From a bacterium (lineage in GTDB: Bacteria > UBA8248), in assembly GCA_965200245.1 (NCBI GenBank), contig CBDATS010000004.1, forward strand, positions 1-64,000: a DNA stretch of 64,000 nucleotides. Direction: 5' to 3'. Positions 1,743-18,825 of the stretch are shown here, in pieces. The notes beneath the pieces are model-generated. The model ran no database searches, was not told the origin of the DNA, and saw only the letters and a program-made list of their open reading frames with translations. Within the stretch, counting starts at the first letter, position 1. The number at the start of each line of letters is the position of its first letter. The position numbers and the translations under genes were made by a program.

Positions 1743-1837
1743 GAATTCCTCATATATGCGGGGAAAAGCCCATTTGCAGACGAATATCTGTCAACAGGTT
1801 ATGGGAGAATGCTCAACAAAACAATTGGGAATTACAT

Positions 1838-2192
1838 ACGCAGAAAAATTTCTTGCGTTTCCACCGGAATGTCCCGTATCCTGTTCATGATGCAAAAGAA
1901 AAACGAAAGCAGCGTGGGTGTCAACCCATACCCATTTCTCTCGGGAAAGGAGACCAGGATGAAATCTGCTACAGAGATGCGGCAGCAGCTGAGTGAGAAG
2001 GCAGGCACGGACGAGGCGTTCCGGCAGAAACTGCTCGACGACCCGCGCGGCACGATCGAAAGCGAGTTCGATGTCGCCCTGCCGGCCGGTTTTTCGGTTT
2101 CGGTGCTCGAGGACAGTGCGGATCATGCGCATCTGGTGATCCCGCCCTCGTCGCTGATCCCCGACAGCGACCTCGAGAGCGTCAGCGGCGGG
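1838..2192 (+). repeat. 355-bp repeat copy A (inverted partner at 8068-8422): upstream region, RBS and full NHLP leader
   Basis: Matches the reverse complement of 8068-8422 by eye; ORF translations are identical up to ...DLESVSGG. Confidence 0.93.
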
Positions 2193-2228
2193 ATAGACCG
2201 GTGGGGTAGCCACGACTACGGCCCCTGA
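1959..2228 (+). CDS. NHLP-leader (proteusin-type) RiPP precursor A, core IDRWGSHDYGP
   Basis: KAGTDEAFRQKLLDDPR...LPAGFSVSVLEDSADHAHLVIPP...DSDLESVSGG leader with double-Gly motif; AAGGAG RBS upstream. Confidence 0.9.
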   Translation: MKSATEMRQQLSEKAGTDEAFRQKLLDDPRGTIESEFDVALPAGFSVSVLEDSADHAHLVIPPSSLIPDSDLESVSGGIDRWGSHDYGP

Positions 2229-2268
2229 CCCTGGCGGGGGGATCTCGCGGGCGTCAGCGGCGGCGCCT

Positions 2269-2469
2269 GAGAAAGCAGAGGCCAGCGAGGAGTTCCGCGC
2301 CCGCCTGCTCGCTGACCCGAAGGCCGTGGTATCCGAGGAGGTCGGAATCGCTCTTCCGGATGATTGTAACCTCCATGTCGTGTCGGATGACGCGGAAAAC
2401 GGCTATCTGGTACTCCCGCCTGCGCCCCGACTCACCGAGGAACAGCTGGCGTCCGTCCAGGGCGGATAG
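2269..2469 (+). pseudogene. Headless, core-less NHLP leader remnant
   Basis: EKAEASEEFRARLLADPKAVVSEEVGIALPDDCNLHVVSDDAENGYLVLPPAPRLTEEQLASVQGG*; no start codon, stop directly after GG. Confidence 0.85.
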
Positions 2470-2473
2470 AAGC

Positions 2474-3013
2474 TTAAGGTATCAAGTCTTCCGGGATTTC
2501 AGTATGTGATTCCCAAACAATTTCCCTCTGAGGGGAGATTTGCACGAGTGTTTCCACGCGCCCGTCCCCGCGAATATGCGAGATGTTTTCACCGCGACCC
2601 TCTGACCAGGCCGTAGATATCAGATGCAGACGATGACAGTTTCTCGGGTTCTCCTCCGCGCAGAGAATCGCTGTGGGTTCTTTTTCCACCTGCGTCCCAA
2701 GACGCTCCATGGCGCGGATGAAACCCGCATCGCGCCTTACCTGCGCCCAGTCAATTCGCCCCTTGTCGCCAAAAAATTCCGGATTTTGTCTGATATTGCG
2801 CTTCCCACCCAACAACTCTCCTTCCCATATGTACGCGATATCCCGAGATTCCAAATACAGGCTCAATTTCTCTTTGTTGAACTGTGGGTTTCTCCTGCTG
2901 TAGGGAATGCTACGCACGTCCACCACGCATGCGATGCCGTGGCGAAACAGCAAGTCCAGGAGTTTTTCCCCGCTGTGGTTGCTGTGGCCTATCGTCCAGA
3001 GTGGATGCTTCAA
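2474..3013 (-). CDS. DUF488 family protein
   Basis: WTIGHSNH...VVDVRSIPYSRRNPQFNKE...ILCAEENPRNCHR; TTG start at 3013 inferred. Confidence 0.85.
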   Translation of the reverse strand: MKHPLWTIGHSNHSGEKLLDLLFRHGIACVVDVRSIPYSRRNPQFNKEKLSLYLESRDIAYIWEGELLGGKRNIRQNPEFFGDKGRIDWAQVRRDAGFIRAMERLGTQVEKEPTAILCAEENPRNCHRLHLISTAWSEGRGENISHIRGDGRVETLVQISPQREIVWESHTEIPEDLIP

Positions 3014-5490: not shown

Positions 5491-7716
5491 ATGGACACGA
5501 CACCGGACGGCAGACACGGCAAGAGCGAATCCTGGGTTCGCGAATGGGTGGGCTGGAGTGAACTCACTCCCGCCGGCAACGTTGAAGCAGGCGCATGGGG
5601 CACGTGGACAATCACCTTCCACGTCGGCAGATACGGTGTAGACGATGGCGGGACAATCATTCTCTCACGTCGCTTCGCAAGCGATTGGGCCAGGCCGCAA
5701 ACCGACGCACCCGACAAAATCCATTTTGCGAGTGCAACTACGAGCGGGAGTGCCTCCCTCAGGCTGAGATGGGACCCGAAATCGAATATCAGGCCCTGGC
5801 AGCAAGGTCTGGCTATCGATGTTTTTGACAGTTATCTGGCGGAAGGAGATACGGTTACCATCGCCCTGGGAGACAGAAGCGGGGGCTCTGCGGGCACACG
5901 TGCCCAAACCTTTTGCGAGAAGAATTTCCGCTTCCGTCTCTTCGTGGACTGTTTCGGCTCGAATCGATTCATCGAAGCGGCCGATACGCCTTCCTTCGCT
6001 ATCGTACCGGGAAAACCGGCCCGTCTCGTCATGCATGGCGCTACGGAACAAGCATATGGTGAGACTTCCTGGATGCAAATAAAACTGGAAGACATCTGGG
6101 GAAATCCATGTTACGGCATCGATGCGGAAGTCTTTCTCACCGCCGAGGAAGCCATATGCGAGGGACTGCCGGAAGTCGTCCAGTTGAAGCGTGACGGTCC
6201 CGCCGTTGTCCGACTTGATGGTCTCAGATGGGAACCGGGCAAGTGGGGACGGGTACGAGGCGATGCCGGTGGCGGCATCCCTGCAGCATACAGTAATTTT
6301 GTGCACGCCATGGAGAAAACCCACAAATGGAGACCATTCTGGGGTGATCTCCACGGCCAAAGTGAGGAAACGGTAGGCACAAATACCGCGGATGATTACT
6401 TTTCATTCGCCCGCGACATGGCGGGGGCGCAATTCTCCTGCCATCAAGGAAACGATTTCCAGGTTACGAAAGATACCTGGACCGACATTCGCGCGGCCAC
6501 AAGGAAATACAACGAACCGGGCCGTTTCATCACGTTCCTGGGGATCGAATGGTCCGCCGTAACAGCCATGGGAGGGGACAGGAACGTCATGTATCTGGGC
6601 GACGACGGCCCTCTGCATCGAACGAGTCATTGGCAACTCGATGACTGGGCCGATCAGGAAACGGACAGATACCCTCTCGATGCTCTATACGACGCAATGA
6701 GTGGACGCACAGACGTCACCTTGATTCCGCACATCGGGGGCCGGCGCGCGAGTCTGGACTATCACCACACAGAGCTTGAACGCGTCATGGAAATATATTC
6801 ATCGTGGGGAAGATTCGAATGGTTCGTGGAGGAAGCCCTGGAAAAGGGCTGGCGAGTGGGCATCACGGCGGGCAGCGATGGACACAAAGGGCGTCCCGGA
6901 GCCAGCTACCCGGGCGCGGCTATTTTCGGCGTCTATGGCGGTTACACCTGCATCTATGCGGAAGAGCTCACACGCGAGAGCCTGTGGGAAGCGATTCAGG
7001 CCAGGCGTATCTATGCAACAACGGGAAAGAAGATTCATCTTTCTTTCTCGGCCGGAAACCATTTCATGGGAGATGAATTCGAATCCACCGAACCGCCTGT
7101 TTTCAAAGTTCAGGCCATGGGCGAATGCGGTATTGAGTCTATAGAATTAAAGCGCGCCTCACAGACCATTTTGTCTTATCATCCAAAAGATGCGGAAGCC
7201 CGGAATGCAGACTGGTTCCGGGTATCCTGGAGCGGCGCCCGCATACACCAGCGCAACCGTCAAACCCACTGGCACGGCGGCTTAAGAGTCGATAAGGGAA
7301 GAATCGAGGAGCCCAGAAACTGGCAAGTGGATAACCTCGAAGAAGGGATACAGTCAGCCGATGATCGAAGTATACGTTGGTTGAGCCGCACGACCGGGGA
7401 TGCGGACGGCGTCGAGTTCCGCCTTTCGGACGGAGAAGGCTCGACTCTCTACTTCGAAACCGACGTTGTTTCCTTTGAGGTAAGACCAGACGACATCGGA
7501 GTCGTTCCTTATTTGGTGGACGCAGGCGGCGTGCGCCAACAGGTGGAAGTGCAGCGCATCAGCCCAACGCCAAGGAATCCTTACGCGAACGTCACTTTCA
7601 AAATCGATGAAAGCGACTTTAATGACGGCTGGAATCCTTATTTCATCAGATTGATGCAAGAAGATGGGGCATTGGCGTGGAGCAGCCCCATATTCGTGAA
7701 AAAGGTGAAAAAATGA
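5491..7716 (+). CDS. DUF3604 / PHP-like metallohydrolase domain protein
   Basis: WGDLHGQSEET, HQGNDF, GSDGHKGRPG, RRIYATTG, AWSSPI motifs. Confidence 0.8.
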   Translation: MDTTPDGRHGKSESWVREWVGWSELTPAGNVEAGAWGTWTITFHVGRYGVDDGGTIILSRRFASDWARPQTDAPDKIHFASATTSGSASLRLRWDPKSNIRPWQQGLAIDVFDSYLAEGDTVTIALGDRSGGSAGTRAQTFCEKNFRFRLFVDCFGSNRFIEAADTPSFAIVPGKPARLVMHGATEQAYGETSWMQIKLEDIWGNPCYGIDAEVFLTAEEAICEGLPEVVQLKRDGPAVVRLDGLRWEPGKWGRVRGDAGGGIPAAYSNFVHAMEKTHKWRPFWGDLHGQSEETVGTNTADDYFSFARDMAGAQFSCHQGNDFQVTKDTWTDIRAATRKYNEPGRFITFLGIEWSAVTAMGGDRNVMYLGDDGPLHRTSHWQLDDWADQETDRYPLDALYDAMSGRTDVTLIPHIGGRRASLDYHHTELERVMEIYSSWGRFEWFVEEALEKGWRVGITAGSDGHKGRPGASYPGAAIFGVYGGYTCIYAEELTRESLWEAIQARRIYATTGKKIHLSFSAGNHFMGDEFESTEPPVFKVQAMGECGIESIELKRASQTILSYHPKDAEARNADWFRVSWSGARIHQRNRQTHWHGGLRVDKGRIEEPRNWQVDNLEEGIQSADDRSIRWLSRTTGDADGVEFRLSDGEGSTLYFETDVVSFEVRPDDIGVVPYLVDAGGVRQQVEVQRISPTPRNPYANVTFKIDESDFNDGWNPYFIRLMQEDGALAWSSPIFVKKVKK

Positions 7717-8040
7717 CAGCGGACAAACTGCCTGTTCTCGACGAAAGTTGGCAGCAGGCACTGGTCACCACAGCGTATCGAGTTCAATGGAATTCAGCAC
7801 CTTGAGCACCGTCTCAAGCTGGGCGGTGAGGGCAAGGAAATCCCATACATCCTGATGACGGGCAGGAAGGCAGGCATTGACGGCATGTCGCCTGAAGAAA
7901 CCGGACCTTCCAGAGAAGAAGAAAAACAAAGCACCGCCATTACAAGCCCATAAGTTCTTTCTCAACGATCTCGCCCAAGGGTCCGAGCCCGTCGATTTCC
8001 TGACTCAAGAGGCTGTCAAGACGGGCAAACGTAGCGAATT

Positions 8041-8301
8041 TCAATGTACGTTATCGTACCATGGAGCCCCGCCGCTGACGCTCTCGAGGTCGCTGTCGGG
8101 GATCAGCGACGAGGGCGGGATCACCAGATGCGCATGATCCGCACTGTCCTCGAGCACCGAAACCGAAAAACCGGCCGGCAGGGCGACATCGAACTCGCTT
8201 TCGATCGTGCCGCGCGGGTCGTCGAGCAGTTTCTGCCGGAACGCCTCGTCCGTGCCTGCCTTCTCACTCAGCTGCTGCCGCATCTCTGTAGCAGATTTCA
8301 T
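8041..8301 (-). CDS. NHLP-leader RiPP precursor B, core APWYDNVH
   Basis: Leader identical to precursor A; different 8-aa core after VSGG. Confidence 0.9.
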   Translation of the reverse strand: MKSATEMRQQLSEKAGTDEAFRQKLLDDPRGTIESEFDVALPAGFSVSVLEDSADHAHLVIPPSSLIPDSDLESVSGGAPWYDNVH

Positions 8302-8422
8302 CCTGGTCTCCTTTCCCGAGAGAAATGGGTATGGGTTGACACCCACGCTGCTTTCGTTTTTCTTTTGCATCATGAACAGGATACGGGACATTCCGGTGGA
8401 AACGCAAGAAATTTTTCTGCGT
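8068..8422 (-). repeat. 355-bp repeat copy B (inverted copy of 1838-2192)
   Basis: Reverse complement match, same length as copy A. Confidence 0.93.
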
Positions 8423-8573
8423 TCCCCCAGGTTTTGTGCTGGACATTAAGAATTTCAAAAAAAAATCGCTACCAAAGGCTATATCTTCTCAAGCGAATTG
8501 GGTAGTATTCGCTTTCAGTTGGGCCGTACGCCACTATCCTATCGATTCAGAAACCTGATGGATGAGGGAATGA

Positions 8574-18474: not shown

Positions 18475-18825
18475 TTATAGCCCCTCAAGCACCTTTGCAA
18501 GCGCAGCGTTCGACTTGTCCAACCCTTCCATGGTCTTGTCCAACCCCTCAATTGCCTTTGCAAGCACAGCGTCTGAATTATCCATTCTTGCCATGGTCCT
18601 GTCCAACCTATCAATTGCCTTTGCAAGCACAGCGTCTGAATTATCCATTCTTGCCATAGCCCTTGCCAACGCAGTGTTCGAGTTGGCCAGTGCCTCGTTT
18701 ATCCTGTCACTCACCACTGCGCGTTCCTTGTTCGCCTTCATCATGGCATAGATGCCATATCCGATAACAACAGGTGTCATCGAACTCGCAACTTCGGGGA
18801 TGGCCATCGGTTCAAATACAATCAT
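18475..18825 (-). CDS. Small membrane-anchored coiled-coil protein with 21-aa tandem repeats
   Basis: MARMDNSDAVLAKAIDRLDRT / MARMDNSDAVLAKAIEGLDKT / MEGLDKSNAALAKVLEGL; 63-bp DNA period; GAGG RBS upstream. Confidence 0.6.
   Translation of the reverse strand: MIVFEPMAIPEVASSMTPVVIGYGIYAMMKANKERAVVSDRINEALANSNTALARAMARMDNSDAVLAKAIDRLDRTMARMDNSDAVLAKAIEGLDKTMEGLDKSNAALAKVLEGL

Follow-up and report, generated by a model that had tools for sequence, protein, structure and literature searches.

Remnants of leader and junction sequences behind an NHLP precursor gene: the probable interior of a small, decayed mobile element

Results and discussion

Features of the precursor A locus

The stretch considered here, positions 2169-2469 of 64,000 nt of bacterial DNA (hereafter 'the window'; contig CBDATS010000004.1, GTDB lineage UBA8248), begins in the last leader codons of precursor A, a peptide precursor gene of the NHLP family, and ends with the stop of a second, truncated NHLP leader, L2. 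A reading made from the sequence alone had taken it for the trace of a core sequence that was inserted or excised as a module at a repeated leader/core junction. That reading missed an enclosing mobile element with inverted termini and a target-site duplication. In our opinion, the stretch is probably the decayed interior of this element (1827-2514), a small non-autonomous one of the type termed MITEs (miniature inverted-repeat transposable elements) or mobile insertion cassettes (MICs), with an NHLP precursor gene as passenger. The features are listed below; in peptide sequences, a slash marks the leader/core boundary.

1819-1826, no strand: target-site duplication, left copy AAACAATT; single copy in the uninterrupted spacer of 18/20 congener loci
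1827-1839, plus strand: left inverted terminus GGGAATTACATAC, 13 nt left of the ~40 nt found in canonical copies
1838-2239, plus strand: A-type unit: precursor A, preceded by a conserved upstream region and followed by 11 nt of 3' flank
1959-2228, plus strand: precursor A, from its translation and TIGR03793 (61.6 bits, cut-off 50.9); NHLP leader 1959-2192, core IDRWGSHDYGP 2193-2225, stop TGA 2226-2228
2169-2191, plus strand: junction 1, GACCTCGAGAGCGTCAGCGGCGG, codons for DLESVSGG
2240-2268, plus strand: 29-nt island, junction 2 plus one more codon (GCC), read as a relic of the 3' end of an A-like leader
2241-2263, plus strand: junction 2, GATCTCGCGGGCGTCAGCGGCGG, codons for DLAGVSGG, inside the island
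2269-2469, plus strand: L2, an NHLP leader devoid of start, promoter and core, from codon 13 to QGG, then stop TAG 2467-2469
2469-2479, plus strand: 11-nt filler, replacing 61 nt of the intact paralogue (core YYNRIFD, stop, 3' untranslated region)
2480-2514, minus strand: right terminal region, with terminus GGGAATCACATAC at 2514-2502, of the type found at C4:115000 and C15:389741
2515-2522, no strand: target-site duplication, right copy AAACAATT

The protein encoded by precursor A reads MKSATEMRQQLSEKAGTDEAF...DLESVSGG/IDRWGSHDYGP, with a core of 11 residues. Past its stop, frame 0 continues as PWRGDLAGVSGGA up to TGA 2268-2270. The repetition of the junction 72 bp downstream, already noticed in the sequence-only reading, was borne out: junctions 1 and 2 have 20 of 23 bases in common, their starts are spaced 72 nt apart, and the second is in the same frame after the precursor A stop. 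A search of the window with the 23-mer of junction 1 (up to 3 mismatches) gave three matches, namely the two junctions and the end of the leader of a second precursor, B (8069-8091); 100 shuffled sequences gave none.

L2 is in frame +1 relative to precursor A. This frame is open since 2197, and its first possible start (ATG, GTG or TTG) is a GTG at 2326. L2 scored 59.5 bits with the NCBIfam profile TIGR03793, over positions 12 to 77 of 77, so that precursor A, precursor B (61.8 bits) and L2 all exceed the family cut-off. Because the match begins at position 12 and the frame contains no early start, L2 is devoid of some 11 N-terminal codons, of a ribosome-binding site and of a promoter. The start codon and complete N-terminus that precursors A and B both possess are absent, and no core follows its Gly-Gly codons (GG-TAG); behind junction 2 there is one codon, then TGA. 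The frame and the partial profile match thus confirm another early observation, that of a start-less NHLP leader ending in QGG and a stop.

An element inserted in a spacer that is uninterrupted in congeners

The element is 688 nt long (1827-2514), and its inverted termini are bordered on both sides by a perfect 8-bp target duplication, AAACAATT. In congeners, DUF488 directly adjoins DUF255 at 21 of 23 loci, and an NHLP match was found at none of the 23. The spacer between the two genes is ~82 nt long, and in 18 of 20 cases it contains one AAACAATT at the homologous place. The empty site, the termini and the target duplication together show that the element was inserted in this spacer.

The 13-nt termini of the window element have 12 of 13 bases in common, and those of canonical copies 28 to 33 of 40. 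The canonical left terminus runs on as TTGAATCCGCAAGTCTG...; the window version switches into the upstream region and promoter of the A-type unit at a dinucleotide AC, A-type homology beginning at 1838. We also observed a 24-nt exact match between window 1816-1839 and C15:390327-390350, in an intact L2-type element; it comprises 11 flank bases (ACAAAACAATT) and the terminus, and the other flank is unrelated.

The genome assembly to which the window belongs (G000; 3.68 Mb in 15 contigs, 96% complete, 8% estimated contamination) contains 12 two-ended elements of 599 to 1006 nt. Their target duplications agree at 8/8 positions in 4 elements, 7/8 in 3, 6/8 in 2 and 5/8 in 3. Termini flanking precursor genes genome-wide are of the same type and stretch to ~40 nt (GGGAATTACATACTTGAATCCGCAAGTCTG...). 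With up to 3 mismatches allowed, the 30-nt terminus was found at 17 places in G000 and not once in 22 congeners, and a degenerate terminus pattern yielded 0 loci in the contigs of other genomes. A canonical element contains one precursor gene with its conserved upstream region; the precursor is the only coding content, and there is no transposase. From the single precursor in each element, the termini and the missing transposase, the elements are therefore assigned to the MITE/MIC type, with a precursor of RiPPs (peptides made by ribosomes and modified after translation) as passenger. Many of the ~35 NHLP precursor genes of G000 ride elements of this family.

A possible source of transposase was sought in the same genome. 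IS1595 elements make 8-bp duplications, and an IS1595-family open reading frame (ORF) lies at C14:1755-2777 (340-codon frame; PF12762, 137 bits), between inverted GGGAATT motifs at 1703 and 2806; the element termini open with these 7 bases too. The IS1595-family ends on C14 share only 7 to 8 nt with the element termini, and no duplication is present there. DDE_Tnp_1 matches in the genome were limited to C14 and one weak fragment, and an ISL3-family search of the genome gave no match. Two candidates for an autonomous partner were rejected. End pairs resembling GGGAATTATATAC, 2 to 2.4 kb apart (C4:1248769-1251152 and C5:7414-9426), enclose DNA methylase-like and other ORFs, as judged from translations only, and no transposase; repeats of 0.7 to 2.9 kb, found by comparing the genome with itself, have different ends. 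Many other short genomic repeats start with GGGAATTATATAC. Separately, the 3' part of many elements (C2:305446-305517, C4:1372040, C4:72492, C5:329645 and others) holds a ~72-nt mini-element that consists of both ends of an IS256-like insertion sequence; this sequence is present in full at C4:705182-706424 and C5:732589-733832.

A composite interior

The homology map of the element is made of A-type DNA (1838-2239) and L2-type DNA (2269-2468 and 2480-2522). The A-type unit is 100% identical to positions 8422-8068 of the window as far as 2192, and, over 1838-2239, has 97% identity with C5:472057-472460. The alignment of L2 with an intact gene at C4:114705-114904 (MKSITEMRNHLLEKAEVSEEF...ASVQGG/YYNRIFD) starts at codon 13 of that gene, with 92.5% nucleotide identity; this homology stops at 2468 and restarts at 2480, which corresponds to C4:114966. 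These alignments suggest that the resident was an L2-type element whose 5' third was replaced and whose core was deleted.

Between the two types lies the 29-nt island, which has no homology to the C5 copy of precursor A (ending at 2239) or to L2-type genes (beginning at 2269). Its sole match in the genome is a copy of the composite on C2, described below, and both genomic copies of junction 2 trace to only one event. The island is perhaps most simply seen as the last codons of an A-like leader that were spared from the homogenisation of full leaders. A tandem duplication as the origin of junction 2 is excluded, since only the 23-mer is repeated and the core is not. The peptide 'LAGVSGGPWRR', which appears in one frame of the 3' segment of longer elements, was also considered as a source; its DNA has no likeness to the window (best local score 22), and the resemblance was set aside as coincidental. 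When the DNA of 1838-2530 was compared with 40 relatives, no match was found outside G000.

Contigs from public sequencing runs

The window stretch is present in ten public runs from three studies; some are labelled sponge metagenome, two are RNA libraries, and one, X1, may be the source sample. Contigs of runs X7 (record 28, 2163-2397), X6 (record 20, 2182-2295) and X1 (record 6, 2213-2397) bridge the stretch without differences, and a contig of run X2 bridges 2240-2397 with 2 differences. The succession of precursor A, junction 2 and L2 is thereby bridged in four runs from two studies, two of the runs being RNA libraries. The RNA-library contigs over all three features fit co-transcription, one contig across two genes not showing one transcript. 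The RNA libraries do not cover 1616-1939, and such absence of cover carries no weight.

A variant contig was found in three runs. Its island reads PWHEDLESVSGGT, followed by a stop, and differs from the window at six positions within 2236-2265 and at none on either side. All six differences alter the encoded residue, and the variant junction 2 (DLESVSGGT) has 22 of 23 bases in common with junction 1. Because the differences are confined to 2236-2265, the island is regarded as a separate segment.

The sequence-only reading had proposed a search for alleles lacking the 72-bp unit. No joint skipping this unit (2192-2264) was present among the contigs of 4 runs, a weak test in which absence of cover again carries no weight. 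Loose contig ends past 2192 (runs X2 and X6) have the same leader with core B or with a core PPWETW followed by a stop. These cores may come from other loci; PPWETW is absent from G000, and related strains therefore carry further cores. A search of metagenome contigs with the junction pattern gave 8 loci, all of them unrelated proteins or chance matches, and no NHLP match was obtained there by tblastn.

Identical leaders and unrelated cores

The second precursor of the window has the same leader as precursor A:

8041-8301, minus strand: precursor B, leader identical to that of precursor A, core APWYDNVH (8 residues); TIGR03793 61.8 bits

The promoters and leaders of the two genes form a perfect 355-nt inverted repeat (1838-2192 / 8068-8422), which ends exactly at the Gly-Gly codons. 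The 5.9 kb between the arms contain DUF488, an M20 peptidase, a dienelactone hydrolase-like gene and a DUF3604 gene, and this segment might be able to invert. Precursor B and its upstream region (window ~7713-8462) stand in place of ~590 nt of a PIG-L/LmbE-like gene. In congeners this gene is intact, between DUF3604 and an FNR-like gene; here its first ~75 codons are left as a pseudogene (7713-7945). The precursor B site has neither inverted termini nor a duplication, and we therefore consider that the A-type unit spreads by recombination, not by transposition.

Among the aligned A-type copies, five of six are identical from codon 6 through the Gly-Gly codons, after which four unrelated cores follow. 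Similar limits were observed in other pairs: C5:328952-329591 and C15:101341-101980 are 100% identical over 640 nt, stopping 4 nt inside the core, and C2:26289-26655 and C4:114531-114898 are 99.7% identical, stopping 4 nt short of it. Identity tracts ending near the core would be the expected product of homology-limited gene conversion, and the association of identical leaders with unrelated cores would follow from conversion tracts that halt where homology halts, at the leader/core boundary.

The copy on C2 contains junction 2 and L2 as well: C2:304738-305343 corresponds to window 1844-2449 with 1 mismatch in 606 nt (99.8%). Flanks, junction (EDASGG) and core (VYDPFGGQMP) of its host element (C2:304598-305596) are all of the type at C4:1371916-1372637. 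The exchange could be mapped on both sides, with crossovers in the shared promoter and in the LTEEQL codons. An intact core is thus found behind a start-less leader because the 606-nt composite was copied in by conversion, and the copy probably silences this resident core. Recombination between junction copies, which the early reading had put forward as the working mechanism, is not what these joints display: the C2 exchange ends in the promoter and in LTEEQL, not in DLxxVSGG, and the other joints are non-homologous.

Two observations concern the DNA next to the A-type unit. At C5:472961-473035, downstream of the precursor A copy on C5 at a distance of ~500 nt, 75 nt are 91% identical to window 1574-1500, in the 5' part of the DUF255 gene; and position 1574 is linked, in an RNA-library contig, to position 2239 of the opposite strand. 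A rearrangement seems to have taken flanking DNA along.

Similar relics elsewhere in the genome

Silent remnants displaced by recombination behind an expressed precursor, as the sequence-only reading had envisaged, were indeed found, and the pattern recurs at C2:243575, C15:101345 and C2:305163. At C2:243327-244332 (with a twin on C15), an A-type gene at C2:243575 (core APWYNDGWPE) is followed, after 16 nt, by ...KLKDASDG/DYWDDARRYQ.... This relic aligns with a gene DEQLKDASGG/SYWDDVDTIHMG at C15:341013, including its 3' flank. An A-type leader and core would here have taken over a resident leader, leaving the resident junction and core. The relic, at C2:243860, has since decayed (GG changed to DG, stop lost). 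The gene at C15:101345 is followed by a partial terminus-like sequence and then by a relic, DEKQLTSVHGG/FYDWPGY and a stop. At C2:305163, the start-less L2 copy has an intact EDASGG/VYDPFGGQMP and stop directly behind it.

Proposed history of the locus

The following history would account for the composite. An L2-type element (of the ...ASVQGG/YYNRIFD type) would have inserted first at the window site. A-type precursor DNA from a paralogue would then have overwritten its 5' part, from the remainder of the left terminus through the promoter to codon 12, the upstream end being homologous or microhomologous and the downstream joint non-homologous. A copy of this kind would duplicate the recipient's junction behind the incoming core. 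There were probably two overwrites: the first would have left the last ~8 codons of an A-like leader (junction 2), and the second would have installed the present leader and core A. The L2 core was presumably lost separately, 61 nt being replaced by 11 nt, and the finished composite would have been copied into another element on C2 by ordinary gene conversion. We infer that junction 2 and L2 are untranslated relics in the 3' region of the precursor A transcript and not a working switch. The modules of the window cannot serve as a reservoir, since junction 2 has one core codon and L2 has none.

Several points weigh against this interpretation. A cognate transposase was not identified among the ORFs and families searched in the genome, and no extant donor of the 29-nt island was found, its A-like origin resting on likeness (20/23 bases in the window, 22/23 in the variant contig). 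The order and number of the overwriting events are inferred. L2 has kept an open frame of 66 codons that is 89% identical, in amino acids, to its intact paralogue. At least two sequence variants of the composite persist, and a second locus has received a copy. Two relics (C2:305344-305393, and C15:101268 onward) retain intact junction, core and stop, and may serve as a reservoir. Lastly, all four mapped downstream joints lie 7 to 11 codons ahead of the cleavage site, which could mean a specific mechanism; relics were found by junction-sequence search, and this clustering is partly due to ascertainment.

Other explanations

In a simpler scenario, the site once held three full precursors in tandem (A, an A-like one and L2), of which the second was largely lost, and the third lost its start, through two ordinary deletions. 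Precursor pairs in tandem do exist elsewhere in G000, and deletions are common in the family. Yet the composite lies inside one element with one target duplication, canonical elements have one gene each, and no more than 13 nt are left of the left terminus, joined straight to the A-type upstream region. The layout of A-type gene, short flank and resident remnant recurs at C2:243327-244332, where the resident 3' flank is retained. Congeners have no precursor at this site: three tandem precursors in relatives, which the early reading had named as the observation that would contradict it, are absent from the 23 congener loci. We consider decay of such an array unlikely. Quite unlikely, too, is a selected cassette system, in which silent junction and core modules behind expressed precursors act as a reservoir, and a new core is loaded through recombination at the codons of the junction or of LTEEQL, in the way put forward for the cdiA-CT and rhs-CT orphans (PMC3150448). 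Relics do lie directly behind expressed-type genes at four places, two of them with intact junction, core and stop; the joints bunch ahead of the cleavage site; the C2 crossover falls exactly in the LTEEQL codons; RNA-library contigs cover junction 2, L2 and the C2 form; and the analogy is set out in the paper just cited. Against such a system, the window relics are empty, that at C2:243860 is decayed, 4 runs showed neither a reloaded allele nor a joint lacking the 72 nt, there is no recombinase nearby in the window, many family members are plain pseudogenes, and the clustering of joints is biased by the search method. It is correspondingly improbable that transposable cassettes carry precursors in this sponge-associated bacterium, an invasive allele overwrites residents, and the displaced junction and core pieces are kept as silent cassettes restorable by recombination at the leader end. 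If true, the bacterium would possess a natural system for shuffling its repertoire of secreted peptides, and thereby a peptide equivalent of the Rhs and contact-dependent inhibition (CDI) orphan toxin arrays.

Two further explanations deserve much less credit. If TGA 2226 were read through and the frame shifted by +1 at TGA 2268, the product would be a precursor with several junctions, or a leader-only peptide, and frame 0 is indeed open from the precursor A stop to TGA 2268, as is L2 for 66 codons. However, GCC-TGA-G does not provide a slippery sequence, a stimulatory fold is missing (as RNA, 2205-2300 folds no better than shuffled sequence, z = -0.05), all six differences of the variant contig alter residues, and the other cores of the family end in ordinary stops of all three kinds. 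Such recoding is very unlikely. In 1743-2560, no terminator-like and no sigma-70-like consensus site was found. As for an assembly artefact through collapsed repeats, the many near-identical copies, the 15 contigs and the estimated contamination could invite one. Because independent contigs from public runs, belonging to two studies, bridge 2163-2397 without difference, and a second genomic copy has the same joints, we regard an artefact as extremely unlikely.

The NHLP precursor repertoire

G000 contains 37 matches to precursor A and, at E <= 1e-5, 35 to L2, two NHLP loci being counted double (contigs C2 and C15 overlap by 4816 nt). The 22 other genomes of the genus have 0 to 7 NHLP matches each, with identity not above 50%. 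The cores are short and contain no Cys, with Tyr, Trp, Asp, Gly and Pro abundant; among them are APWYDNVH, APWYNDGWPE, GDPWYWRD, YYNRIFD, YYDWDDAF, QYDPFGGRIP and SYWDDVDTIHMG. Tandem precursor pairs are found at C4:1313935-1314399 with 1314484-1314882, and at C8:326698-327356. Pseudogenes of the family include a core deletion (C4:1517844) and frameshifts (C2:26249-26686, and C4:571198, which equals C8:198920).

G000 has one ABC exporter with a C39 peptidase (PF03412 match at C8:224283-224669), adjoined by an HlyD-type gene and a second ABC gene. YcaO was not found in this 96%-complete assembly, and no RiPP maturase was found among the 46 ORFs of the window. In congeners, the NHLP precursor belongs to a cluster (G020:C1:1409000-1427000; L071) that also encodes a YcaO protein of 772 residues, a fatty-acid-desaturase/GlnE-like fusion of 812 residues, a protein of 447 residues with an NHLP-like N-terminus, and two ABC proteins, one with a C39 peptidase. 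Compared with its congeners, G000 has thus kept exporters and is devoid of YcaO. Elsewhere in the window, positions 18481-18669 hold three tandem copies of a 63-nt unit, 70 to 79% alike.

Comparison with known systems

The stretch itself is a fossil; its interest lies in the record it keeps of mobile precursor cassettes and of allele overwriting. It also calls for caution in genome mining, where a leader without a start, or a stray junction, beside a precursor can turn out to be a fossil and not a gene.

Like the MITEs and MICs described in PMC3129680, the elements are short, transposase-free and multicopy, with terminal inverted repeats, target duplications and, as in MICs, a passenger gene. 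The passenger differs, being here a RiPP precursor with its own promoter. A literature search, which did not cover all journals, found no report of inverted-repeat elements that carry RiPP precursors.

The likeness to orphan modules of Rhs/CDI toxins, drawn in the sequence-only reading, holds as a pattern and fails on content. As with the 'silent cassettes' of orphan cdiA-CT/cdiI and rhs-CT/rhsI (PMC3150448), the window relics lie directly downstream of an expressed gene and have no initiation signals. They retain a boundary motif (VENN or DPxGL there, DLxxVSGG or EQLxxxxGG here) and are covered by transcripts there and by RNA-library contigs here. A complete variable module is absent from the window relics, although two relics elsewhere are complete. 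The published orphans are full functional toxin/immunity pairs, whereas the window relics have no core and no immunity partner; and they form arrays at one locus, in contrast to the 90-codon precursors scattered here on mobile elements, for which no reloading was seen. No reloading joint was present in 4 runs and no related allele in the metagenome scan, both being weak tests.

The srp proteusins of sponge symbionts (10.1101/2023.06.09.544420) likewise have an NHLP leader of ~80 residues with LTEEQL, a motif cited in that work as the YcaO recognition sequence, and both families occur in runs labelled as sponge metagenome. Their cores are of LCCCW type, with YcaO and a halogenase; the cores described here contain no Cys and much Tyr, Trp, Asp and Gly, with no YcaO found.

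The prochlorosins of marine picocyanobacteria (procA; 10.1101/2020.03.09.984088) appear to be the nearest RiPP parallel. There too, dozens of dispersed precursor genes have conserved leaders and unrelated cores, and mobile-DNA machinery is suspected of being linked to their expansion, diversification and loss. The link to TnpA_REP consists in co-location with a single-strand transposase and repetitive extragenic palindromic (REP) repeats, and the authors note that causality is unproven. Unlike the prochlorosin genes, those of G000 lie inside inverted-terminus elements with an 8-bp duplication and an empty site in congeners; the leader is of Nif11 type there and NHLP here, and no LanM-type enzyme is linked to the genes of G000. 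How libraries of one leader and many cores are built is stated to be unresolved for the prochlorosins in the same paper. Here, the steps may be read from the sequence: precursors and their promoters would travel on an element of cut-and-paste type, leaders would be homogenised by ectopic conversion as far as the cleavage codons, and displaced residents would leave datable relics. This would provide a concrete route by which the peptide repertoires of a symbiont expand and turn over.

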